Source: an uncultured virus (IMG/VR IMGVR_UViG_3300018019_000008)
Lineage: Duplodnaviria > Heunggongvirae > Uroviricota > Caudoviricetes
Strand: one strand, 5' to 3'
Length of the DNA stretch: 20,000 nt
Virus record (IMG/VR): IMGVR_UViG_3300018019_000008
Made by a program: the position numbers and the translations under genes. Below, one piece after another: positions 2 to 20,000 of the stretch. Below the pieces are notes generated by a model, which saw only the letters and a list, made by a program, of their open reading frames with translations, made no database searches and was not told the DNA's origin. The stretch's first letter is position 1; the number at the start of each line of letters is the position of its first letter.

Positions 2-3000
2 TGTGTAAACCGCGCTATAAACTGGTGGGTTATTTATGTCTGTGTTTGCTATAGTGAAAAGAACTTCTGGGAGTGCATTTCCATATTGGACACCGTTAAA
101 TTCTACTTGTATTGTAGCTTTGTAATGAGTGTTAGATAAAATACCGCACATAAATTTAGCTTTACCGTTAGTAATCATAGTCGATACTGGAACATATAAC
201 GCCTCATTGTATCCCCCTTCACCATAAGGAGCACCAGTATAGTAATCTGACGCTTGAGCAGAAAAACAAGCATATACATAGAATTCTCCTTTTGCTACAC
301 AAACTATTCTAAAGAAGAACCCTGTTCCGTATCCAAGATAAGCACTTTCGCCGTTAGCTGTATTTACTCCTGAAGATGGATTAGACATCATTCCAACATC
401 AATATAATCTCCTATATTCCATATAGTACCACTACTGCCTGACTTGCTATATGGCGGATTAGCTGGTTCATAAACTTCAAAGGTTGTAGTAAACTTTGGC
501 TCTTGTGTTAATGGAATATCAGTTGCTTGTCCCTGTAAATTGTTTCCACCAGCATCGAAACATTTGTTACTATATCTTGCTTCTTGCCATACTATTCCTA
601 TGTTAGTTTTATCTCCACCCCAGATAGCGCAATTAGAAGTATCGGCTTTCCATCCAGCGTCATTACTTGGTGAATAACCACTTGGACCGTTTGTTTGTGG
701 GAACCATTGTGGGTCACTTGAACCTTGACCTGTAGTTACTTCCTCGTTTTTCGCCGTTTTACTAAAGAGAGTTGATAATTTGTCTGGATTAACTTTATTC
801 GATTGTGCTCCTTCAGCCGCCCAATCAGTTGCGATAACACCCATTATTCCCAATGTCTTCAATTGCTTATAAACATCTTTCCAAACATTGCTGATGTCGA
901 GATAAGGTGCCTGACAAGTTAATGTTATGTTTTCACCATTTTCATCAACTTTTGCTTCGGTATTCCAAATTCTATATGCGCTTGTTAGGTTGTTTGGAAT
1001 TGCATTAGGTACTAACCCAGACAGAACATCATTAAGTACAACGTCATCTCCAACATCGTAAATATTGGGGTTTGAAGAGTTAAAACCATGTTCATATGTG
1101 TCTCTTCCTATTTTACATGTTATTGCATTCTTTCTTTTCGGGCTTGCATCAATCTTCAATCTAACTTTAGCATATCTATCAGCGATTCTGCCACCAGCAA
1201 CTTGTTTCTGGGTGAAAATATCTTCGAAGAATCCCTGAATTTCATCCATAGCTTCTGAATCATTTGACCATATTGAGCTAGAATCTTCTTGATTCTTTCC
1301 TTCGCCACTTCCTATTACTTGAACTCTTTGATAAGTATCTCGTGAAGTTCGCTGGTATTTAACTGATTGCATATTTGTTCCTGTTACAAACGAGACAGAA
1401 GTGGACTTGTCGCTTCCTACTCTTGGACCCATATGGAAGTCTCCGATACAATTAAGAGGGTCATGAACTGATGGAGATTCTATCCACCATTCAAATGGCA
1501 AATAATCGTCATTTACCATCGTACCTATATCGAAAAGAATGTCCATTAATCTGTTTTTTGGAATGTTGGTTGGACCAATCATGAAAAGGTCACCTTGCGT
1601 ATATCCCGAAGGATTTCCCGTTTGCTCGCTGTATGATATGAGATTTAAGTCAATATCAGCATCAGCTAAATAGATATATGGACCCCCGCTATAAACAGGT
1701 CCAATGTATGCGTAACAAATCCCGTTACCAACTCCATCTCCGCCGTCAGGAGTATATAAAAGAATTACATCATTTTGTTTAGGAGCATAAACCCCGTTAG
1801 TTGCATCGACACGCCATTCATAAACGTAAAAAGGACTTTCATATGTACCTATGTCAACATAATTGTTCTGTCCATCATCAATAAGTATTCCTATAAAATT
1901 TTGTGGAGCAAAAGAATTAGCATAAACTTGCAATCCTAAATCTGTATTAACAGTTGGACTATATGTTTGACTATAATCAATGTTAAAGTTTCCTTCTATG
2001 AAACTAGCGTATGCAGAAGAAACATACATATGGTCGATTGGATTAGTAAATGTAGTTTCTGTAGGATAAGGAGAAGTAGGAATCCCACTACCATTAAACG
2101 GAATTATATTTCCAGTAGATATTGGAGTAATCGAATTATCTCCCTCAATAATTAACAATCCATATGTTCCTTGAATAAAGGAGACAGTAATAGTTTGAGA
2201 ATAAGTGCCTGAAAGATTACTATATACCCCAACAATACCATTACTGCTAATACCCCAGAAATATACAATCCAAGTTCCAGTATAAGAATTAAGGTCTATT
2301 TCAAACCATTCCTGAGTTAAACTTCCGTTTGCAAAGATAACTTTAACTAAATCGGTTGTATTTGTATCTTGCAAAGTTGAAGTATCTAGAATTAAACTAA
2401 AATTATTATAGAATTTTACGTTACCTTGCGAAGTTGTTAGTATTGTTTCTCCCGCATTTACCTGAGCATAAGTAGCGGTATATTCCTCTGCCGTACCTGT
2501 TTCTGTGAATTCTATTTTATATTCCTTTGTTTTTTGTACTGCTGAAGGGTCTGTTACGTTATTTGGTAGTAATGCTTCATCCCATCTTACCCAATACTTT
2601 ACGGGGTCCGTTCTATAGATGTAGGTTTGAGTAATTTCCCATCCATGATTATAATTATCGCTTTTAGATTCGCTGATTGATGTTCCCAATCCCGCCGCTG
2701 GGTCAGCATAGATTTTTACATTTGTCATATTTCGTGGGTGCCAGCTATGTAAAATATCTGGATAAATATTTTGAAGGTGACACATAGCTTGGTTAGCAGT
2801 AGTGTAAGAATGAACAAGCGGATTTTGTAGAGTAATTGTGTTTCCATTTACCGATTCTATAACATTGATTTCACAATTTGTTGGATTGCCATTCGGGTCG
2901 AAAGTATCCATGATTCCTATATTCATACTTGGTTGGAAGAAGGCATTTGGAGCACTCGAAAGAACTATTGTTGATGAGCCTTTAGATGCATTTGAAGCCA

Positions 3001-6000
3001 AAGTTATAGGTTGATATGTATTAACTAAAGTTATTTCTGGTCCAAGTCCAGCAGATATAACTCCTAAAGTGTATGTTTCTGATTGAGTATTTATATCCAT
3101 TGCATCGAGAAAAGTAGCGTAAGTAGAACCACTTCCATATACTTGTAAATTCGGGTCATACTCAGCTTCAAAATCAACTGTATCTATAGTTCCAGCATTA
3201 TTGAGGGAAGTAAATTGAGCGAGTAAAACTGGTGTGCCGCTGGTAATATTGTACAGTTGTACATATCCAGAACCAGCAGAAAGAGAAGCTATTAACCTAA
3301 TTTGAATCCATGTACCATTAATAATAGGGAAATCAGTCCAACTTGTACCCCATTCTCCATTTAGAACAAGATTACCATTTTCCATAAGGAAAAATCTCAT
3401 GTATTGTTGATTGGAATTTGCATATAAACTGGTTTCAACTCCAACAACGGCGGCGCAAGATGTCATATTTGGATTTGGACGAGCGACAGATGAACTATTA
3501 TAAAGTTTCAATAGATTAATCCAACCATAAGATAAAGTTCCATTGAAGTTAAGTAAAACTTGCCCGATTTGGAATTGAGCATATGCTGGATTACCTGATG
3601 TTTCAATGCTTCCAACAATAGAAAACTTTACTTGTGCGCTCATCCAATCATCGTAAGATGTCAAATATGAAGATATGTCAGTTGGTGCAAACAAGTTTGC
3701 CCAAGATGTGCTTGAAAATTGATTTCCAGAATCAGCAACTTGTACCCAACTACCTGAGTGCGCTACCCATAAGAATGCTTGAACCCGTATATTTTGTATA
3801 GCACCGTTTCCGCCTATGTTATTTTGGATTCTTGCTGATACGTTAAAGTGACAAGGACTTGTAGGTACACATGCAGTACCATTCGTACTGAAAGCATTAG
3901 CTAAGTTATCAAATGTGCAATAGTCAGCAGAAGCCCATGTAGGAACTACAGTACCTAAAACATAAATATGGTTATCATCTTCATCACTACTTGTTCTAAC
4001 ATATGGTGCCGTACCAGCCGTAAGCCAATGGTTACTACCAGCCTGATTCCAAGTAGCCGCCATTACATTGCCATTTTTGCTCTGATTATGCGGTGGCGGA
4101 GCACGAACCCAAGCATCTACTTGAACAAAAGATGTGGGATTAATATCTTCCTCAAAATACCATTTTTGACCGTTAGCAGTACATTGTATTTGTTGGCATC
4201 CAGTTCCTTGTATTTGTTGTGTAGTGTTTGTTGAGTCTTGAGCGTTTCCACCAAAAGTGCTCCAAGTATTGGCTGTACTTGATTGAGCAGTAAAATCATC
4301 AATCCATACTCCATAACCATCAAAAGATGCTGTGTCGATGAAGATATTTACAACTTGTTTCGTATTGTTTGTCCAAGCATTTGCTTTAGCATCCTCAAAA
4401 ATCCAACCAGTTTGAGTAGAAACTATAACAATGGGAGATAATGTATTGTCGCTATAGACTAAATAATACTGGAATCGTTTACCTTGAACTTGACCTCTAT
4501 GCCAGAACCCTAAACTTGTACAATTATTATACACTACAGACGGATTAAAGTTTGCTGATTGTGTAGCTGTACATTCTTCAGGAACATTAAAACTAGATTC
4601 TGTGCATGGCATATATAAGTCCCATATTCCGCTATGTGCATTAGTGCCATCATTATAAATTTCGGCATTAGAAAGAAGCCATCCCGTACTATCGCCAGTT
4701 TCAAAGCCGCCGTTAATAAATTGTTGTCCGCCACTTGTAAAAGCGTCCATATTATTGGAATAAATTTCTGCTAATCCCTCAAAAGCATAAGATATTGCCA
4801 TATAACGATATGTAAATGTATCCCCAGCATTAGTAATTGGACAACTCCAAATTAATTCACTTTGTTTCATAGTTCCAGCATTATAGATATAATATGTAAG
4901 GGTTGTACCACTTCTTATAACCTGAACCCAATATGTAGTACCTATAGAAAGATTACTTATTCCATTAACAAACGTTCCAGCGAAATATGTTTCTGTACCA
5001 TAACTACTGCCTTTATATCTAACTTCTGGGTATAATACCCCGCCTATGTTAATAATATCGAAAGTAGTGAAAGCACCAGCTTCTTGCTCTATTGTGTAAA
5101 AGTTTGCTATTTGATTAGCCAAACACCACGGTATAAATGCTGGCGCATTATGTGGAGATGTTGATGTAGAACAAGGTTGAGAAGTTCCTATATTAAAGGC
5201 AAAACTTTCATTAATAGTTCCGTTTATAGGACCAGTTTCAGTTGCGTTTATTCCTTGTCTGTAGAAATATGCAATTTTACTTGAATTATCGCTTTGATAA
5301 GAATAAAACGTAAGTTGGTCTTGTCCAGCATCTAAAGCAAGATAAGGTGGGTTTGGTGTTGATGCCTCATAGAGAGTATAGCCATTAAAAAGTTCTAGTC
5401 CACCCGAAGTTGTAATATGATAAGCGGCTGGAAATGAATTAATATGCTCTCTGCTTTCAAGATAAACCCCCATACATGGGATTTCATTAAATTGTATATT
5501 AACCCAATCTGGATTATGACCAGAAGTTTTAGTAGGATTTGGGTAAATAGTTCCGCCACTTGCATATCCAACTTGGAGATAACAGTAACGAATGTAAGTA
5601 GAAAGAAGACCTAATTCTACGAATTTTATTCTCGCGTTATTTACATCGCCAACATTCGTAAGAACATGTGAAAGGTCAATAGTATATATTCTCCAAGCTA
5701 ATTTATTTATGTCATAAATACTTCCAAACGTGAGACTTGCAAGCGCATTACTTCTTCCAATCATCTCTCCCATATCAGACCAATCTCCATTAGAAGCAGT
5801 ATATACAAGAACTTCGCAATCAGATTGAATGAATGGATTTAGAGTAAAGTCCCCCGCTGACCATATTACAAGAGTACAACTATTAACCGCTGTAGCATTA
5901 TCTGGGGAAGCATATGGGGGCATAGGCTTACCATTTGGATTTTCCCAAAGAGGATTAACTGAGAAAGTAATGGAAGCATTAACGTTAATATTAGATTGAA

Positions 6001-6769
6001 TATAACTTGTTGGTCTTGTTCCAAGAAGGATACTGTCATTTGCATAAGGAGCGGTGCCTATTTCATCCCATCCGCTATTTTGCATAACTGCTCCAACTAC
6101 TCCTTCATAACCGTGATATTCATCTGTAGGTTGACTTATTTCAAAAGGAGTCCCAGAATTTGACCAAATCATATCTCTTTTTCTTAAAACAGTAGTGTTT
6201 ATATCGCCATATCCTTCTTGATTATCTGGACCTCGACCACCTTCTAAAGCTATGAAATTGGAAATGTCAATTCCCCATCCTTCTTTATTATAAGGATACA
6301 TTGATTCAGCAGTAGTAGAAGTATCGCTTGGAACTTGTGGTAAATCTGAACGCGGAGTCCAGAGTAAAAACTTCATCAACTCAACTGGATTAATATTTCC
6401 GAAAAATCCTTTGGTTTCTGGAAGTGGATTATTAAAGTTTTCTACATACTTTCGCCAGAGCAAAAGTGTAAGGTCTCGTCCACCAAGATTAAGGAATCGT
6501 CCATCTTCATCCCAATCAATTTCTATATCTTCAACGAACCCTACCCATTCTTGATTTCCATCACGCACAAATTGAATTAGGTCATTGAAAGTAACGTTAG
6601 GGTCATACTCAATTGTAGCTGTAAATTCTGGGGGAGAATCCATTCTAACTTTCTTTTTAACATCAAATGTTGTCCACTTACGCGGGAGTCCCCAATTAGG
6701 ACTTGGAGTCCCAACAATATTAGCTTGATGAGCTATATAAACTGTCCATGTTTTTCCAGATTCAGGCAT
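2..6769 (-). CDS. Giant tail-tip / baseplate-hub (Tal-like) protein with inserted adhesin or carbohydrate-binding domains, >=2256 aa, 3' end outside the window
   Basis: ATG at 6769 gives MPESGKTWTVYIAHQ...FTATIEYDPNVTFNDLIQFVRDGNQEWVGFVEDIEIDWDEDGRFLNLGGRDLTLLLWRK, a hub-like N-terminus. The same frame is coding at the window edge (...LPEVLFTIANTDINNPPVYSAVYT). Absence from the ORF track fits a frame with no stop in the window. A hub-like second half (YQRVQVIGSGEG...YDVGDDVVLND) lies at about 880-1560, and a CBM-like motif (FINGGFETGDSTGW) at about 4700. It lies downstream of the tape-measure-like gene. Confidence 0.8.
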   Translation of the reverse strand, partial: MPESGKTWTVYIAHQANIVGTPSPNWGLPRKWTTFDVKKKVRMDSPPEFTATIEYDPNVTFNDLIQFVRDGNQEWVGFVEDIEIDWDEDGRFLNLGGRDLTLLLWRKYVENFNNPLPETKGFFGNINPVELMKFLLWTPRSDLPQVPSDTSTTAESMYPYNKEGWGIDISNFIALEGGRGPDNQEGYGDINTTVLRKRDMIWSNSGTPFEISQPTDEYHGYEGVVGAVMQNSGWDEIGTAPYANDSILLGTRPTSYIQSNINVNASITFSVNPLWENPNGKPMPPYASPDNATAVNSCTLVIWSAGDFTLNPFIQSDCEVLVYTASNGDWSDMGEMIGRSNALASLTFGSIYDINKLAWRIYTIDLSHVLTNVGDVNNARIKFVELGLLSTYIRYCYLQVGYASGGTIYPNPTKTSGHNPDWVNIQFNEIPCMGVYLESREHINSFPAAYHITTSGGLELFNGYTLYEASTPNPPYLALDAGQDQLTFYSYQSDNSSKIAYFYRQGINATETGPINGTINESFAFNIGTSQPCSTSTSPHNAPAFIPWCLANQIANFYTIEQEAGAFTTFDIINIGGVLYPEVRYKGSSYGTETYFAGTFVNGISNLSIGTTYWVQVIRSGTTLTYYIYNAGTMKQSELIWSCPITNAGDTFTYRYMAISYAFEGLAEIYSNNMDAFTSGGQQFINGGFETGDSTGWLLSNAEIYNDGTNAHSGIWDLYMPCTESSFNVPEECTATQSANFNPSVVYNNCTSLGFWHRGQVQGKRFQYYLVYSDNTLSPIVIVSTQTGWIFEDAKANAWTNNTKQVVNIFIDTASFDGYGVWIDDFTAQSSTANTWSTFGGNAQDSTNTTQQIQGTGCQQIQCTANGQKWYFEEDINPTSFVQVDAWVRAPPPHNQSKNGNVMAATWNQAGSNHWLTAGTAPYVRTSSDEDDNHIYVLGTVVPTWASADYCTFDNLANAFSTNGTACVPTSPCHFNVSARIQNNIGGNGAIQNIRVQAFLWVAHSGSWVQVADSGNQFSSTSWANLFAPTDISSYLTSYDDWMSAQVKFSIVGSIETSGNPAYAQFQIGQVLLNFNGTLSYGWINLLKLYNSSSVARPNPNMTSCAAVVGVETSLYANSNQQYMRFFLMENGNLVLNGEWGTSWTDFPIINGTWIQIRLIASLSAGSGYVQLYNITSGTPVLLAQFTSLNNAGTIDTVDFEAEYDPNLQVYGSGSTYATFLDAMDINTQSETYTLGVISAGLGPEITLVNTYQPITLASNASKGSSTIVLSSAPNAFFQPSMNIGIMDTFDPNGNPTNCEINVIESVNGNTITLQNPLVHSYTTANQAMCHLQNIYPDILHSWHPRNMTNVKIYADPAAGLGTSISESKSDNYNHGWEITQTYIYRTDPVKYWVRWDEALLPNNVTDPSAVQKTKEYKIEFTETGTAEEYTATYAQVNAGETILTTSQGNVKFYNNFSLILDTSTLQDTNTTDLVKVIFANGSLTQEWFEIDLNSYTGTWIVYFWGISSNGIVGVYSNLSGTYSQTITVSFIQGTYGLLIIEGDNSITPISTGNIIPFNGSGIPTSPYPTETTFTNPIDHMYVSSAYASFIEGNFNIDYSQTYSPTVNTDLGLQVYANSFAPQNFIGILIDDGQNNYVDIGTYESPFYVYEWRVDATNGVYAPKQNDVILLYTPDGGDGVGNGICYAYIGPVYSGGPYIYLADADIDLNLISYSEQTGNPSGYTQGDLFMIGPTNIPKNRLMDILFDIGTMVNDDYLPFEWWIESPSVHDPLNCIGDFHMGPRVGSDKSTSVSFVTGTNMQSVKYQRTSRDTYQRVQVIGSGEGKNQEDSSSIWSNDSEAMDEIQGFFEDIFTQKQVAGGRIADRYAKVRLKIDASPKRKNAITCKIGRDTYEHGFNSSNPNIYDVGDDVVLNDVLSGLVPNAIPNNLTSAYRIWNTEAKVDENGENITLTCQAPYLDISNVWKDVYKQLKTLGIMGVIATDWAAEGAQSNKVNPDKLSTLFSKTAKNEEVTTGQGSSDPQWFPQTNGPSGYSPSNDAGWKADTSNCAIWGGDKTNIGIVWQEARYSNKCFDAGGNNLQGQATDIPLTQEPKFTTTFEVYEPANPPYSKSGSSGTIWNIGDYIDVGMMSNPSSGVNTANGESAYLGYGTGFFFRIVCVAKGEFYVYACFSAQASDYYTGAPYGEGGYNEALYVPVSTMITNGKAKFMCGILSNTHYKATIQVEFNGVQYGNALPEVLFTIANTDINNPPVYSAVYT

Positions 6770-9616: not shown

Positions 9617-9633
9617 CCATAAGATTTAAATAG
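9617..9633 (+). promoter_or_regulatory. Archaeal BRE+TATA promoter
   Basis: CCATAAGATTTAAATAG, a copy of the recurring 17-bp motif. Confidence 0.8.
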
Positions 9634-10826: not shown

Positions 10827-10914
10827 GTATTTTCACCTTACAATCATAACAAAGATTATCTTCCCAATCGGTAACAGTTCCGCCGCAACCTAAGCATATA
10901 TGAGCTTCTACCAC
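10810..10914 (-). CDS. Small Zn-finger protein (34 aa)
   Basis: GTG start gives MVEAHICLGCGGTVTDWEDNLCYDCKVKIHENRT*. Two CxxC motifs; it fills the gap between the terminase and Cas4-like genes with short overlaps. Confidence 0.5.
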   Translation of the reverse strand: MVEAHICLGCGGTVTDWEDNLCYDCKVKIHENRT

Positions 10915-12521
10915 AGATTCGCACCGCTTTCTTTAACTTGAGAGAATGGACTACCTTCGCCATTGTCAACTTCATCATAATAGCTGATAGCATAAATCAT
11001 TGCATCCGCCGAGTGGTCATCTTGCTTGCGGATTTTACCAGTTTCATCATAGGTTAAGTTTCTAAGGCTTCGCATCAAATCCTCGTTATCTTCATGTCTT
11101 GGAATCCGTAGTTTATGACGCTCGACATATTTCTTGAGAGTAGCAACATATTTATACTTCTCATTTCCGCCTTCCGCGCCCGTAAATAATTCATGAACAC
11201 CAGCTTCAACCCGTTCGGCGAGCCAGCCATTAAGTGCCCATTCTCGCGGGTCAGGACGAATAACTTCAACTTGCCATCTGGTAGCAAGTTCAACCGCTAA
11301 GTCTAACTTTTCTTGGTCTGTTAAACCAATGGTCTCATGGGCTTCCAATACGAAAACCCAATCTCTAAATTGACCGAGAACAACATAAGCAGTAGGGCTT
11401 CCTCTGCCCCAATCTATACCTAATACTCGGTTATGAACGTATTCGTTTAATGCCGCCATTGTGTCTGTTGGCAAATCGTCCATTTTCATTCCTTCCTGAA
11501 GTAAAACTCTTTGTAGAAGTTCAAGGCATTTTCCAGCTTCGTATGGACGGCATTCATCACACGCGGCTTTGCAGAATGCAACACCTAAATCTGCTGGGTT
11601 AAAGACCAGACCAGATGATGTGTTAATACCACCGAGAGCTTCAACTAACCATTCAGAGTTAGAACACTTCTTTCTAAGAATCTCAATATTTAAGTCTGGC
11701 ATCCACGGAACATTTGACTTCCAATGTTTCGGGTTTGTGTCTTCGTAAATCTTATATGGGTCTGTTTCATCAGTAACGCCAGCGTCATTAACATGTCTGG
11801 CGATTGCCCATTGATAACGTTTATAGCCTAACTTTTCTGCATCATTCCAAGTTATCAAGAAATCTCCGTGAATAAAGTGCGCTGTTGAACTTTGAATAAT
11901 GTGTATATCTGGGCTTGTAGAAACTTCCCAAATTGCTGATTTAATAAACTTTCCGCCACCAGCTTCTTCACCAGCCGCTTGTTCATCTATAATTAAGTCA
12001 TAAGTGTGTGGACCTCGAACTGAAGTTCCTGAGCAAGCATGAAATTTAGCTTCTCCCTCAGAGAACGTAGTTGTTGTTTTTTGAATGTTCTTTAAAGTGT
12101 AACCTTCTAAGACCGTGTTATTCCGAATCCAGCCTTGAATATAAGACGCAATTTTGTCTGACTGCTCTTGAGAACCACCCATACATGAAATGCTGTACAT
12201 GTCGTGAGTAAATATTCGCCACATAATATAGATGGCTAAAACGAAAGTCTTACCTGAGCCACGCCCAGCCGAAATGATTACAAGTCTAACGCCATGAAAT
12301 GCTAAGTCTTCTAAAAATTCTTTCTGTCCATCTGAAAGAACAAGAGGACCGCCTGTATTCGGGTCTGTTCTTAAAATTTGATAAGCGAATTTTACTGGTC
12401 CCTCAACCTTCCAAAATTCACGCCATTTTCTATAATCTTCAAGCTCTATGATGTCTTTCTTCTTGAATTTCTGAAGTAACTCAGTTTCCTTATCGAACAT
12501 TCCCTTCGGGAACTTAGCCAC
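10908..12521 (-). CDS. terL: Terminase large subunit
   Basis: LSDGQ Q-motif, Walker A SAGRGSGKT, Walker B LIIDE, motif III SSTA, and RNase H-like nuclease motifs LGIDWG and DDHSADAMIYA. Confidence 0.93.
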   Translation of the reverse strand: MAKFPKGMFDKETELLQKFKKKDIIELEDYRKWREFWKVEGPVKFAYQILRTDPNTGGPLVLSDGQKEFLEDLAFHGVRLVIISAGRGSGKTFVLAIYIMWRIFTHDMYSISCMGGSQEQSDKIASYIQGWIRNNTVLEGYTLKNIQKTTTTFSEGEAKFHACSGTSVRGPHTYDLIIDEQAAGEEAGGGKFIKSAIWEVSTSPDIHIIQSSTAHFIHGDFLITWNDAEKLGYKRYQWAIARHVNDAGVTDETDPYKIYEDTNPKHWKSNVPWMPDLNIEILRKKCSNSEWLVEALGGINTSSGLVFNPADLGVAFCKAACDECRPYEAGKCLELLQRVLLQEGMKMDDLPTDTMAALNEYVHNRVLGIDWGRGSPTAYVVLGQFRDWVFVLEAHETIGLTDQEKLDLAVELATRWQVEVIRPDPREWALNGWLAERVEAGVHELFTGAEGGNEKYKYVATLKKYVERHKLRIPRHEDNEDLMRSLRNLTYDETGKIRKQDDHSADAMIYAISYYDEVDNGEGSPFSQVKESGANLW

Positions 12522-13386: not shown

Positions 13387-13403
13387 CTATTTAAATCTTA
13401 TGG
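13387..13403 (-). promoter_or_regulatory. BRE+TATA promoter of the terminase operon
   Basis: CCATAAGATTTAAATAG, identical to 9617-9633. Confidence 0.8.
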
Positions 13404-15970: not shown

Positions 15971-15987
15971 ATATTTAAATCTTATGG
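15971..15987 (-). promoter_or_regulatory. BRE+TATA promoter
   Basis: CCATAAGATTTAAATAT. Confidence 0.75.
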
Positions 15988-17397: not shown

Positions 17398-17697
17398 CTA
17401 TGGTCTCGGCGAAGCGTGTTCTCCCGCTTGTGAAACTGGTTCTGGCGGTTCATACTTTGCCACTTGTGCTTCAAGGTCTTTTATCCTAGCAAGATGAGAT
17501 TTGATTTCATTATTTTTGTTATCAAGCATGTAAATCTGGTTTTTAATAGTGTCATTTTGACTATTAATGATAACCTGTTGGTTAGAAATAGCGTCTGCTT
17601 GAACTTTAAAAAGCGGAACAATCATATTTACTAAATCTTGTTTATGTTGTTCTACCAATGCCTGAATTTGAGCTTGAATATCGTTTACGTTAGGCAT
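17398..17697 (-). CDS. Coiled-coil protein
   Basis: Gln/Asn-rich heptads. The start is likely ATG 17697 (MPNVND) given the promoter at 17727-17743. Confidence 0.65.
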   Translation of the reverse strand: MPNVNDIQAQIQALVEQHKQDLVNMIVPLFKVQADAISNQQVIINSQNDTIKNQIYMLDNKNNEIKSHLARIKDLEAQVAKYEPPEPVSQAGEHASPRP

Positions 17698-17726
17698 AGT
17701 ATCCCCATTATACAATGGTCAAACAC

Positions 17727-17743
17727 CTATTTAAACTTTATGG
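17727..17743 (-). promoter_or_regulatory. BRE+TATA promoter
   Basis: CCATAAAGTTTAAATAG. Confidence 0.75.
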
Positions 17744-17759
17744 TTAATCAACTGATTAA
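17744..17759. promoter_or_regulatory. Palindromic operator-like site (copy 3)
   Basis: TTAATCAACTGATTAA abutting the BRE at 17743, between divergent promoters. Confidence 0.65.
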
Positions 17760-17815
17760 ATAAGTGTCAGTTCATGTTTGTGAACTTTGTGATTTTGACA
17801 AGCATGGAGATTATA

Positions 17816-17832
17816 CCATAACATTTATATAG
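17816..17832 (+). promoter_or_regulatory. BRE+TATA promoter of the RNA/tRNA cluster
   Basis: CCATAACATTTATATAG. Confidence 0.75.
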
Positions 17833-17859
17833 GAGACTGCTATTATAACTAACACACTT

Positions 17860-18035
17860 GAAGTGGTCTAACATGATGGCAACATCAATAGTCTATAATA
17901 TTCGTTTTAAGCGGTGTATCGGAGAAGACGCACCAGCGGACCACATAGGTAAATTTAGAACGACCCAACAGTAATCCAAAAAAGCCTAAACCGTTGCCAT
18001 CGAAATAAGGTTTGATTTGCTGGTTGGTCTTTTGT
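17860..18035 (+). ncRNA. Candidate pseudoknotted structured RNA leading the tRNA cluster
   Basis: Follows the promoter at 17816-17832. Pairings: GTGGTC(17863)/GACCAC(17939) and GATGGCAAC(17875)/GTTGCCATC(17993), plus a long stem at about 17962-18029. Confidence 0.5.
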
Positions 18036-18096
18036 CGCATTGGGGTTTTGGGGTAACAACGAACAAAGCGTATTTCCCTGAAACAGACATCTTTGA

Positions 18097-18218
18097 AGTG
18101 TGGTATCTCTAACGGAAGGAAGCAAGTCCTTGAACAACCAAGTTCGGGAGCTTACGCCTCTGAACAATTCGTTGGGGGATAGCTTGCGGCGTGGGTTCGA
18201 CTCCCACCCACACAACCA
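18097..18218 (+). tRNA. tRNA-Gln(UUG) with a 47-nt BHB intron at 37/38 (intron 18134..18180)
   Basis: CAAGT-CCTT-GA|A-CAAC...GTTG-GGGG-AT|A-GCTTG forms a strict BHB. T-arm GTGGG-TTCGACT-CCCAC; encoded CCA. Atypical A1.A72 and C33. Confidence 0.85.
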
Positions 18219-18270
18219 CTAACTCTTCTAATAGACTTGTAGCTTAATGGATAGAGCCTTATGCTTCTAA

Positions 18271-18287
18271 CCGATAAGTTTAAATAC
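18271..18287 (+). promoter_or_regulatory. BRE+TATA promoter at the 5' end of the tRNA-Arg intron
   Basis: CCGATAAGTTTAAATAC, starting at intron nt 2. Confidence 0.7.
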
Positions 18288-18320
18288 TTGTTGTACCATT
18301 ATATACTATGGTGATAAAGC

Positions 18321-18782
18321 ATACCAATACTCGACAAAGACAAGAAACAAGAATATGATAGAAATTGGGCATATAATAAACGTCATGGATTACCAACAAG
18401 AACAACAATAAAGTTACCAGAAAATGTTCGAATTGAACGTCAAAAGTTAACAAAGAAAAAATATAAAGAAAACCGCATTAACTTACGAAAACAACAATTA
18501 ACAAAAAAATTCGGAGAACGATGCCCAATTTGCAATGACAATTATTGTCTTCAAATTCATAAAAAAGATGGAAGCCCTCATATATCATGGCAATCAATGA
18601 ATAATGCAGAATTTTCATTGTTACTTTCATCAGATGATTATGTTCAACTTTGTTTCAATTGTCATAAAGCAGTACATTGGTGTATGTATTATCTTGGTAT
18701 GTCATGGGAACAAATAAAAAAACTTGTAATTCTTCCAGTTATTGCAACTGCAATAGAAATGAAGAATAAGTACCATGCGTAG
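18321..18782 (+). CDS. Intron-encoded HNH-like endonuclease (153 aa, probable ATA start)
   Basis: The frame is open from ATA 18321 (preceded by GGTGA and an in-frame TAA): (M)PILDKDKKQEYDRNW...FGERCPICNDNYCLQIHKKDG...YVQLCFNCHKAVH. The track shows only the C-terminal 61 aa. Confidence 0.7.
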   Translation: MPILDKDKKQEYDRNWAYNKRHGLPTRTTIKLPENVRIERQKLTKKKYKENRINLRKQQLTKKFGERCPICNDNYCLQIHKKDGSPHISWQSMNNAEFSLLLSSDDYVQLCFNCHKAVHWCMYYLGMSWEQIKKLVILPVIATAIEMKNKYHA

Positions 18783-18891
18783 TCAGGAAGTAACATAAGA
18801 GATGAGGGTCCGAGTCCTTCCGCCTGTGCCATAGTTAACCTCAATCGTGTTAATCATTTATATATGATTGACCTTGATTAACGTCAACTGT

Positions 18892-18917
18892 GCCGATGTA
18901 GCTTATGTGGTAGAGTA
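18892..18917 (+). tRNA. 5' part (nt 1-26) of an interrupted tRNA-Thr-like gene
   Basis: GCCGATG-TA-GCTT-ATGTGGTA-GAGT-A; TATA box (TTTATATA) about 27 nt upstream. Confidence 0.65.
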
Positions 18918-18918
18918 A

Positions 18919-18935
18919 CCGAAAGACTTAAATAG
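18919..18935 (+). promoter_or_regulatory. BRE+TATA promoter at the 5' end of the tRNA-Thr insertion
   Basis: CCGAAAGACTTAAATAG. Confidence 0.7.
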
Positions 18936-18967
18936 TAGTTTACAATATTATATTACGGTGATAAACT

Positions 18968-19393
18968 ATGGATGAATTTAATAAAGACCAATTACGATAT
19001 AAAGACCCAGAGAAACGAAAACAATATCAAAAAGATTACGCTAAAAACAATAAAAAGAACTACTATAAATTACATCCTGAATATAAAAAAATAGCGGCAG
19101 ATAAGAAAAAAGCGTTGTTAAGAAAAAAGAAACGCAAAATTGTAGAATTGCTCGGTGGTAGATGCTCAAATCCTAACTGTGCTTGTCCAGATGGATATTC
19201 AAGATGTATAGCGGCATTAGAACTTCATCATCCAGACGAAACAACTAAAAATGAAAACTTCAATAACTATCTTGCTATGTCTATGGAAAGAATAATAAAA
19301 GAAGTATTGCCTATAGTAGTATTGTTTTGCTCAAATTGCCATCAAGAACATCATAATCCAGAACTATGCCGCTTTAGCATAACAGAAATGTAA
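18968..19393 (+). CDS. HNH-like endonuclease inserted in the tRNA-Thr-like gene
   Basis: LLGGRCSNPNC...ALELHHPD...LFCSNCHQEHH; own promoter at 18919-18935 and GGTGA RBS. Confidence 0.8.
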   Translation: MDEFNKDQLRYKDPEKRKQYQKDYAKNNKKNYYKLHPEYKKIAADKKKALLRKKKRKIVELLGGRCSNPNCACPDGYSRCIAALELHHPDETTKNENFNNYLAMSMERIIKEVLPIVVLFCSNCHQEHHNPELCRFSITEM

Positions 19394-19438
19394 GGGTTCT
19401 GTAAACCTTTGATGGGTGTGCAACTCACCCAAGCGGCT
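19393..19438 (+). tRNA. 3' part A of the tRNA-Thr(UGU)-like gene
   Basis: AGGGT-TC-TGT-AA-ACCTT, TGAT, GGGTG-TGCAACT-CACCC, AAGCGGC-T. Begins within the HNH stop codon; no CCA. Confidence 0.65.
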
Positions 19439-19500
19439 CTTTAAACCGCAAACTTTATTAACAACCAACGAGATAGTAATAAAACAAGAAGTGAAAAACT

Positions 19501-19581
19501 ATGAACTGTTCAGATTGTAAAGAACTATATAAAGAACGAAAACAAGAACCACCGTGTAAGAGTTGTCCTATAAATGGATAA
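19501..19581 (+). CDS. Micro Zn-finger peptide (26 aa)
   Basis: MNCSDCKELYKERKQEPPCKSCPING*; follows the promoter-like element at 19446-19462 and overlaps the next start. Confidence 0.5.
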   Translation: MNCSDCKELYKERKQEPPCKSCPING

Positions 19582-19948
19582 TGAGTGGGGAGTTGGAATG
19601 CCTGAAAGTTTATACCTTGACGAATTTGCTCGTCAACTGTACTATGTCTTTCAAGCAACACCATATATGGTTGGTTCATCAGTTCATAAGAAAAAATGGC
19701 GAGATGTTGACATAAGAATACTCCTAACAAAAAAGGAATGGGATAAATTTGGATTTGGTAAAGTTGGAGAAGAACATCAAAACGGAAAGTGGTGTGCATA
19801 TTGTATGGCATTTAGCGAATTAGGTAGAAAAATAACGGGATTACCAATAGATTTTCAGATACAAGAGTTGGATGATGCTAACAAGAAATATCAAGGACAA
19901 AGAAATGCTTTAATTTTTAAACTATCATCTGATTGCATTAATAAATAA
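19574..19948 (+). CDS. Minimal nucleotidyltransferase (pol beta superfamily)
   Basis: YMVGSS...RDVDIRILL (hG[GS]...DhD) with a third carboxylate in LPIDFQIQ. Confidence 0.75.
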   Translation: MDNEWGVGMPESLYLDEFARQLYYVFQATPYMVGSSVHKKKWRDVDIRILLTKKEWDKFGFGKVGEEHQNGKWCAYCMAFSELGRKITGLPIDFQIQELDDANKKYQGQRNALIFKLSSDCINK

Positions 19949-19999
19949 CGGGTTTTGTAAACCTGTGAAGAGAGGTTCAAACACTCTCCTTCGGCTCCA
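19948..19999 (+). tRNA. 3' part B of the tRNA-Thr(UGU)-like gene
   Basis: (A)CGGGT-TT-TGT-AA-ACCTG(T), GAGAG-GTTCAAACA-CTCTC, CTTCGGC-T-CCA. Begins at the nucleotidyltransferase stop codon and has no 5' half of its own. Confidence 0.65.
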
Positions 20000-20000
20000 A

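Follow-up and report, generated by a model that had tools for sequence, protein, structure and literature searches.

What is a 523-nucleotide (nt) insert with its own protein-coding frame doing in the anticodon loop of a viral transfer RNA (tRNA) gene? The question is raised by a 20,000-nt stretch of DNA from an uncultured virus of the Caudoviricetes (IMG/VR record IMGVR_UViG_3300018019_000008), here called the window, in which a tRNA-Arg(UCU) gene at 18233-18831 is interrupted between positions 37 and 38. The initial annotation of this DNA held that the two tRNA halves join exactly at the canonical 37/38 site around the 523-nt insert, and our analysis confirmed this to the base. We read the locus as the tRNA-Arg(UCU) gene of an archaeal virus split by a protein-spliced, homing-type intron of the bulge-helix-bulge (BHB) family that carries an HNH gene, and we give this reading a probability of roughly 0.72. 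The parts of the element are as follows.

18233-18269, plus strand: exon 1 of tRNA-Arg(UCU), positions 1-37, homologous to the 5' exons of two related loci (L007 and L008, below).
18259-18276, plus strand: 5' strand of the BHB, from the table of junction registers: TTATG, CTTC, TA^A (predicted cut after 18269) and outer CCGAT.
18270-18792, plus strand: 523-nt intron at 37/38, identical in the related loci L005 and L006.
18271-18286, plus strand: internal promoter of the B recognition element (BRE)/TATA type (CCGATAAGTTTAAATA), one base longer than the promoter motif found elsewhere in the genome.
18279-18286, plus strand: TATA-type box, TTTAAATA.
18310-18315, plus strand: GGTGAT ribosome-binding site, 5 nt ahead of the ATA codon.
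18321-18782, plus strand: HNH-family open reading frame (ORF) of 153 codons plus TAG, first codon ATA.
18782-18798, plus strand: 3' strand of the BHB, from the same table: outer GTCAG, GAAG, TA^A (predicted cut after 18792) and CATAA; GAAGTAA is conserved in L006, L007, L008 and L009.
18793-18831, plus strand: exon 2 of tRNA-Arg(UCU), positions 38-73 plus CCA.

Exon 1 supplies a D arm (GCTT/GAGC), the anticodon-stem strand TTATG and the loop bases CTTCTA, and exon 2 supplies A38, CATAA, a T arm (GAGGG/CCTTC) and a 3' end in G-CCA. The 5' junction reads TTATG CTTC TA^A CCGAT and the 3' junction GTCAG GAAG TA^A CATAA. The anticodon stem thus pairs at 5/5 positions and the central helix CTTC/GAAG at 4/4, with a 3-nt TA^A bulge on both strands; the outer helix CCGAT/GTCAG is weak, pairing at 4/5 positions including one G.U. 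The BHB junctions that had been described from the letters of the window therefore stand. At the base composition of the window, a random 4-mer pairs fully with CTTC with a probability of 0.0056 (Watson-Crick pairs only) or 0.010 (when G.U is allowed), an outer helix that pairs at 4/5 or better arises by chance with a probability of 0.042, and the two together come to ~0.01 x 0.04. The whole BHB geometry was satisfied by 94 of the 5,778,000 position pairs in the window.

Homologous loci allowed the junctions to be compared. A metagenome scan yielded DNA of five of them, whose encoded proteins are 100% (L005 and L006), 51% (L007), 46% (L008) and 70% (L009, 3' part only) identical to the product of the window ORF. 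In all five, the end of the ORF, GAAGTA, leads directly into exon 2 of tRNA-Arg(UCU), and the 5' junction CTTCTA is kept in the 4/4 loci that reach the 5' side. The BHB register, with its 4-bp helix and two 3-nt bulges, is the same in L006, L007 and L008. Anticodon stems differ yet pair: TTATG/CATAA in the window, TCTTG/CAAGA in L007 and TTATG/CGTAG in L006 (with two G.U); in L008, TCATG/CGTAG forms 4/5 pairs with one mismatch, ARAGORN prefers a shifted loop, and the acceptor stem of the same tRNA pairs 7/7. In the outer helix, 6/9 positions in register pair in L007, and L008 has an unrelated sequence, TCTACTG/CAGTAGA, that forms seven consecutive pairs and pairs at 8/9 positions in register; the chance of a 7/7 match is 7.5e-5. 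This pattern shows that the BHB structure is maintained by compensating changes in the three lineages available. The initial annotation had named loss of the BHB around the ORF in homologous loci as grounds for abandoning its interpretation, and the motif proved to be kept in L006, L007 and L008.

The same arrangement recurs in other tRNA genes of L008, which holds three HNH-bearing introns and an ORF-less one within a single 3.5-kilobase (kb) stretch.

L008 140-546: intron of tRNA-Arg(UCU).
L008 624-1127: intron of tRNA-Thr(UGU).
L008 2127-2469: intron of tRNA-Arg(UCG).
L008 2550-2653: intron of tRNA-Trp(CCA).

The scan for such introns required a central helix and stem, and then that ARAGORN, run at default settings, call the joined product with its junction at 37/38; it also produced false joins between halves of neighboring tRNAs, which were removed by eye, and the new junctions kept were L008 2126/2470 and 2549/2654. 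The tRNA-Thr(UGU) intron is 504 nt long and encodes a 149-amino-acid (aa) member of the family in the register AGAGT TCTG TA^A TGA ... TCA CAGA AT^A ACTCT, its central helix being TCTG/CAGA; the joined product is called tRNA-Thr by ARAGORN at -ps90 and has a 7/7 acceptor stem. The tRNA-Arg(UCG) intron, 343 nt with a 96-aa family member, has an outer helix (GAACAACAG/CTGTTGTTC) that pairs 9/9 and had not been used as a search criterion, and ARAGORN at default settings calls the spliced sequence tRNA-Arg, again joined at 37/38. The tRNA-Trp(CCA) intron (104 nt, also at 37/38) is the ORF-less one. In two of the L008 HNH introns the stop codon overlaps or passes the 3' splice site. The ORFs of the window, of the L008 tRNA-Thr(UGU) and tRNA-Arg(UCG) introns and of their relatives align as one family. 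The central helix thus matches the loop of each host tRNA, as would be expected of a splice signal acting in RNA but not of a DNA repeat. Elsewhere in L008, a stretch of ~250 nt behind a promoter motif (3040-3290) finishes with a T arm and acceptor strand resembling those of a tRNA, followed by CCA; the stretch is not called as a tRNA and may be another interrupted one.

The intron had been credited with a BRE/TATA promoter, a ribosome-binding site and a 153-codon HNH-like ORF. These were recovered, the ORF matching the PHROG HNH families phrog_2255 (E 1.2e-5) and phrog_3106 (E 1.4e-5), but its first codon is ATA. Outside the ORF, the intron consists of 51 + 10 nt (61 nt in all). The internal promoter module also occurs at the 5' end of the L007 and L008 introns and, at 18919-18934, in a second HNH cassette of the window, where GGTGAT again precedes the ATG of the HNH gene. 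A database search returned five homologous proteins at 51-61% identity; in 4/5 of them (P0001, P0002, P0003 and P0005) the M of "MPFKD" aligns with the ATA codon, and P0004 starts two columns later. Eleven residues are invariant over 30 aligned sequences (G65, C68, C71, H80, G84, H87, C111, C114, H115, H119 and W129), among which H80 is, in our reading, the putative catalytic histidine. The ORF is under purifying selection across lineages: for the four pairs whose dS is finite, the ratio of nonsynonymous to synonymous divergence (dN/dS) lies at 0.13-0.25, with synonymous sites near saturation, and members of the Arg(UCU) clade retain a C-terminal KNKYH despite synonymous codon differences. An AlphaFold model built from six sequences reached a predicted local distance difference test (pLDDT) score of 79.5. 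Of two structural comparisons made with it, the second gave as its best match the HNH protein SciA of phage T5 (Z 5.9; root-mean-square deviation 5.7; 84 residues aligned), followed by the HNH domains of Cap5 and Cas9 (Z about 3), a resemblance that is suggestive only; a PDB sequence search with the family profile gave only chance-level rows. Representative clusters of the family number 558 at E <= 1e-3, falling to 255 at <= 1e-10 and to 15 at <= 1e-30.

Does the element move? Over 1551 aligned nt, only three differences separate the window from L006: a 2-nt indel in the intron of the neighboring tRNA-Gln; a 6-nt patch of exon 2 (18795-18800) with four substitutions, two of which fall in the stem and keep pairing as G.U; and a 432-nt insertion in L006 (1088-1519; after window position 18820 or 18828, past the T arm). 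The inserted cassette, at the 3' end of the tRNA-Arg gene, contains a promoter and an HNH gene encoding 118 aa, and the direct repeat on either side of it is the 8-nt CGCCTGTG. A neighboring HNH cassette is thus polymorphic, present in L006 and absent from the window, which is a sign of cassette traffic. Looking for intron-less alleles in related viral genomes had been proposed as a check, and none was found: the exact 5'-exon pattern gave 0 hits, and a degenerate D-arm pattern gave one match, in an unrelated tRNA-Arg(UCG) array (L011). The pattern of the 3' end of the intron matched 78 IMG/VR and 27 genome stretches, none of which codes for a relative by tblastn, and the HNH alignment found nothing among genome contigs. 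Of the proposal that this is a mobile, protein-spliced tRNA intron with an HNH homing enzyme, the protein-spliced part is supported by the conserved BHB and by the lack of a detected group I core (below), and the mobile part is supported indirectly.

Several observations weigh against our reading. The D, anticodon and T arms of the joined window tRNA form, and the acceptor strands AGACTTG and CGCCTGT pair at only 4/7 positions, or at 5/7 in a shifted register; ARAGORN does not call the joined tRNA at default settings and does so at -ps80 or -ps90 in the shifted register. Because of these two findings, splicing of the window copy may yield no usable tRNA. Among the Arg(UCU) introns, the window copy has the weakest outer helix. 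No ATG, GTG or TTG occurs in the ORF before codon 93, which lies beyond the conserved His80, and given this lack of a canonical start together with the 4/7 acceptor stem, the window copy may sit in a "dead tRNA" state, the alternative that the initial annotation had named. Pfam gave no HNH match for the ORF at E <= 0.01, and Foldseek with the HNH model gave no match at E <= 1e-3. Usable DNA came from three independent lineages only. Neither an intron-less tRNA-Arg(UCU) allele nor a presence/absence polymorphism of the 523-nt intron was found in the collections searched, which hold few relatives, and the evidence for mobility is therefore indirect. Around the second cassette, 650 nt downstream (18919-19393 or 18919-19949), and the ORF3 beyond it, no BHB above chance was found, 136/300 random scans being equal. 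The archaeal host, finally, is deduced, and the nearest Atlas clusters of the viral terminase are a mixture of viruses, Nitrososphaerota, Bathyarchaeota and Planctomycetota.

The acceptor stem deserves closer description. Among 28 tRNAs called in related arrays, 24 have 7/7 acceptor pairs and four have 6/7; for each tRNA, the best-pairing of five trims at the 3' end was counted, and the set is confined to tRNAs that ARAGORN can find. No better acceptor partner (CAAGTCT or ACAGGCG) was found in the window or L005. The 5' acceptor strand of the window pairs better with the 3' strand of L009 (5/7, by hand), and the window's own 3' strand resembles the L007/L008 type; the mismatch may for this reason be a scar of recombination between two allele types. 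The mismatched acceptor and the ATA start both recur in L005 and L006, which are separate assemblies of an almost identical virus, and the window copy seems to be ageing.

These defects are the natural ground for an explanation without splicing, in which a free-standing HNH cassette landed in a tRNA gene, or occupies one that is by now dead, and the pairing of its ends is a remnant or an accident. The 4/7 acceptor stem, the ATA start codon and the weak outer helix all fit it, as do other HNH genes: the adjoining HNH-2 cassette is flanked by tRNA fragments without a BHB, four further HNH genes of the window (which has five other cassettes) lie between ordinary genes, and distant homologues in IMG/VR are neighbors of tRNAs and are not enclosed by them. 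We nevertheless consider it unlikely. An accident or remnant does not account for an exact BHB register that the window shares, through compensating changes, with L006, L007 and L008, for two stem substitutions between L006 and the window that preserve pairing, or for the presence of the element in three well-formed tRNAs of L008. At most, the explanation fits the present state of the window copy, not the kind of element to which it belongs.

It is far less probable still that the paired ends work in DNA, as terminal inverted repeats of a transposon-like cassette or as a hairpin recognized by its nuclease. The ends are inverted repeats by definition, and the 8-nt direct repeat around the extra cassette of L006 looks like the footprint of a DNA insertion. 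A function in DNA, however, gives no reason for two offset 3-nt bulges exactly 4 bp apart, for the use of host loop bases 32-35 as one arm (in the tRNA-Arg and tRNA-Thr introns as well as in the ORF-less introns of tRNA-Gln and tRNA-Trp), or for junctions placed so that joining gives back an anticodon loop of the usual 7 nt.

That the locus is an HNH-bearing, self-splicing intron of group I (or group II) can be dismissed as scarcely credible, because, common as HNH genes are in phage group I introns and although passages of PMC1995217 describe a homing-endonuclease group I intron (I-Ssp6803I) that splits a bacterial tRNA-fMet gene, Rfam detected no catalytic core (P3-P9), with no intron match at gathering thresholds nor at E <= 10 in 17500-20000, and 61 non-coding nt are too few to hold one.

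For the BHB intron that we favor, the anatomy of the locus, its conservation and its covariation in relatives can be read directly from the alignments; cleavage and ligation of the exons, circle formation, nuclease activity and homing are deduced from them. Transcripts from the array promoter would contain both intron ends, which would pair across 523 nt as helix, 3-nt bulge, 4-bp helix, 3-nt bulge and helix. The splicing endonuclease EndA of the host would then cut after 18269 and 18792, and RtcB would join the exons and probably circularize the intron. The HNH gene would be expressed from its own intron promoter and ribosome site, and its enzyme would presumably cut intron-less tRNA alleles of co-infecting relatives, whose repair would copy the intron in (homing). 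A bolder idea, which we put forward with considerable doubt, is that HNH-bearing BHB introns form an actively homing class that hops among different tRNA genes in archaeal viruses, and perhaps in the host genomes too, that the excised intron serves as a circular messenger for the nuclease, and that decay of the ORF leaves short ORF-less 37/38 introns behind. If so, moving to a new tRNA would need only four intron bases to be re-matched to the new anticodon loop, the class would be a living source of archaeal tRNA introns, and the nuclease could also act as a weapon against co-infecting viruses.

How does the element compare with known systems? Archaeal ribosomal RNA (rRNA) BHB introns encode LAGLIDADG homing endonucleases, such as I-DmoI and I-PorI. 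The element would resemble them as a protein-spliced BHB intron with an endonuclease ORF, presumed homing at the DNA level and expected circularization, and it differs in that the host gene is a tRNA, split at 37/38, in place of an rRNA, the enzyme HNH in place of LAGLIDADG, and the genome that of a tailed virus in place of a crenarchaeal chromosome; it also has its own BRE/TATA promoter and ribosome site. With the canonical archaeal 37/38 tRNA introns, of which the one in the neighboring tRNA-Gln is an ordinary example, it shares the position, the h-B-H-B-h' geometry and the inclusion of loop bases 32-35 in the central helix. Those introns, however, are short and carry no protein gene, whereas this one has 523 nt and a 153-codon ORF. 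The tRNA region of phage T5 has HNH enzymes, and as in the free-standing homing endonucleases of phage tRNA clusters, small nuclease genes colonize a viral tRNA array here; T4/T6 SegB is such a case (PMC13096335). The second cassette (18919-19393) and the extra cassette of L006 resemble this free-standing type, whose members lie between tRNA genes and require no splicing, unlike the element in tRNA-Arg(UCU). Finally, the Synechocystis tRNA-fMet group I intron likewise places a homing-endonuclease gene (I-Ssp6803I) in the intron of a tRNA gene; according to passages of PMC1995217 it is a self-splicing ribozyme with a PD-(D/E)XK enzyme in a bacterium, whereas the present intron lacks a ribozyme core and would be removed by host proteins.

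The initial annotation knew of no described example, and our literature search of open-access papers likewise found no published ORF-bearing or HNH-bearing BHB tRNA intron. Passages of PMC6125680 describe homing-endonuclease genes in archaeal BHB introns. The element would widen the range of such introns to tRNA as well as rRNA genes, to HNH as well as LAGLIDADG enzymes, and to viruses as well as cells. How archaeal tRNA genes gain introns is an open question. The locus and its relatives offer what may be snapshots of such gain: a single nuclease family occupies the canonical site in three different tRNAs, the arms of the splice signal are fitted to each host loop, and cassettes differ between near-identical genomes. 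Passages of a 2014 review refer to growing evidence for viruses or transposable elements in recent intron gain (PMC4033280). Natural BHB introns of 340-520 nt with internal promoters would also make the spacing of BHB halves and the translation of circles testable. Intron endonucleases can decide the competition between co-infecting phages (PMC11620839), and the same could hold for archaeal viruses.

The region downstream of the split gene contains the second cassette and its surroundings.

18893-18918: tRNA 5' fragment that stops after the D arm.
18919-18934: promoter motif.
18968-19393: HNH-2, overlapping the first 26 nt of tRNA-Thr(UGU).
19368-19439: complete tRNA-Thr(UGU), Rfam 49.8 bits.
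19574-19948: ORF3, 124 aa, no family match.
About 19950-19998: tRNA 3' fragment ending in CCA.

The 5' and 3' tRNA fragments would pair 6/7 in an acceptor stem. L009 is without ORF3, and the D stem of its tRNA-Thr differs by a compensating pair. With HNH-2 as the query, only one weak locus was found. The wider family alignment (A5) found 10 loci in IMG/VR, four already known and six distant; 9 of these loci were scanned, and none held an enclosing BHB-split tRNA except chimeras of separate tRNA genes. Three large IMG/VR contigs carry distant HNH homologues without a clear start codon (L001 2971-3303, L003 about 3001-3372 and L004 2989-3120). Their frames extend into the 5' half of a tRNA-Ala(UGC) gene, or end at that gene, and do not lie inside it, in surroundings that hold 14-24 tRNAs per 6 kb. 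Because no BHB above chance was found at the second cassette and distant members lie beside tRNA-Ala(UGC), the HNH family occupies tRNA arrays in at least two ways, only one of which uses a BHB.

On what does the archaeal assignment rest? A 16-nt motif in which a BRE-like element adjoins a TATA box (CCRWAASNYTTAWATA) is found 11 times in the window, where 0.15 occurrences would be expected, and 0/200 shuffles reached 11. Sites include 9617-9632, 13388-13403, 15972-15987, 17816-17831 and 18919-18934, and where the flanks were inspected, the copies precede ORFs or the tRNA array. We read them as archaeal-type promoters, on the basis of general knowledge of archaeal promoters. The copy ahead of the array and the first tRNA behind it are as follows.

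17816-17831, plus strand: array promoter motif (CCATAACATTTATATA), which would drive the tRNA array and with it the unspliced pre-tRNA-Arg.
18097-18218, plus strand: tRNA-Gln(UUG) with encoded CCA and a 47-nt BHB intron (18134-18180) at 37/38.

The register of the tRNA-Gln intron is CAAGT CCTT GA^A CAAC ... GTTG GGGG AT^A GCTTG. ARAGORN and Rfam both miss the unspliced gene, and after splicing in silico ARAGORN at default settings calls tRNA-Gln in the window, L006 and L007. The BHB intron is conserved in L007; L007 and L008 both keep its core, GCCTCTGAAC, and in L005 and L006 the intron is 49 nt long. BHB introns that lack an ORF, like those of tRNA-Gln and of the L008 tRNA-Trp, would be pointless in viral tRNAs unless the host spliced them, and together with the promoter motif and the GGTGAT sites they argue for an archaeal host. 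We accordingly take the window for a segment of a tailed archaeal virus that carries a tRNA array. Passages of PMC8651126 describe tailed viruses of archaea that have many tRNAs and RNA ligases.

Between the array promoter and tRNA-Gln lie ~240 nt (17858-18096) that are 75% identical to L007 515-790 and contain the long-range complementary pairs GTGGTC/GACCAC and GATGGCAAC/GTTGCCATC. The segment has no Rfam match and its fold z of -1.1 leaves the structure unsupported; it may be a leader or a novel RNA.

The rest of the window is in keeping with a tailed virus. The large terminase subunit is encoded at 10908-12521 on the minus strand (phrog_2, E 1.8e-22; Pfam Terminase_6C, E 5.4e-7), and a neck or tail-completion protein and a dUTPase-like enzyme are encoded as well. 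A blastn search of a phage collection with the window gave no match, and the terminase as a query found no relatives in IMG/VR. Six of the 21 window ORFs scanned have HNH PHROG matches. A minus-strand open frame at 2-6769, which has no Pfam or PHROG match, spans at least 2256 aa and extends past the edge of the window.

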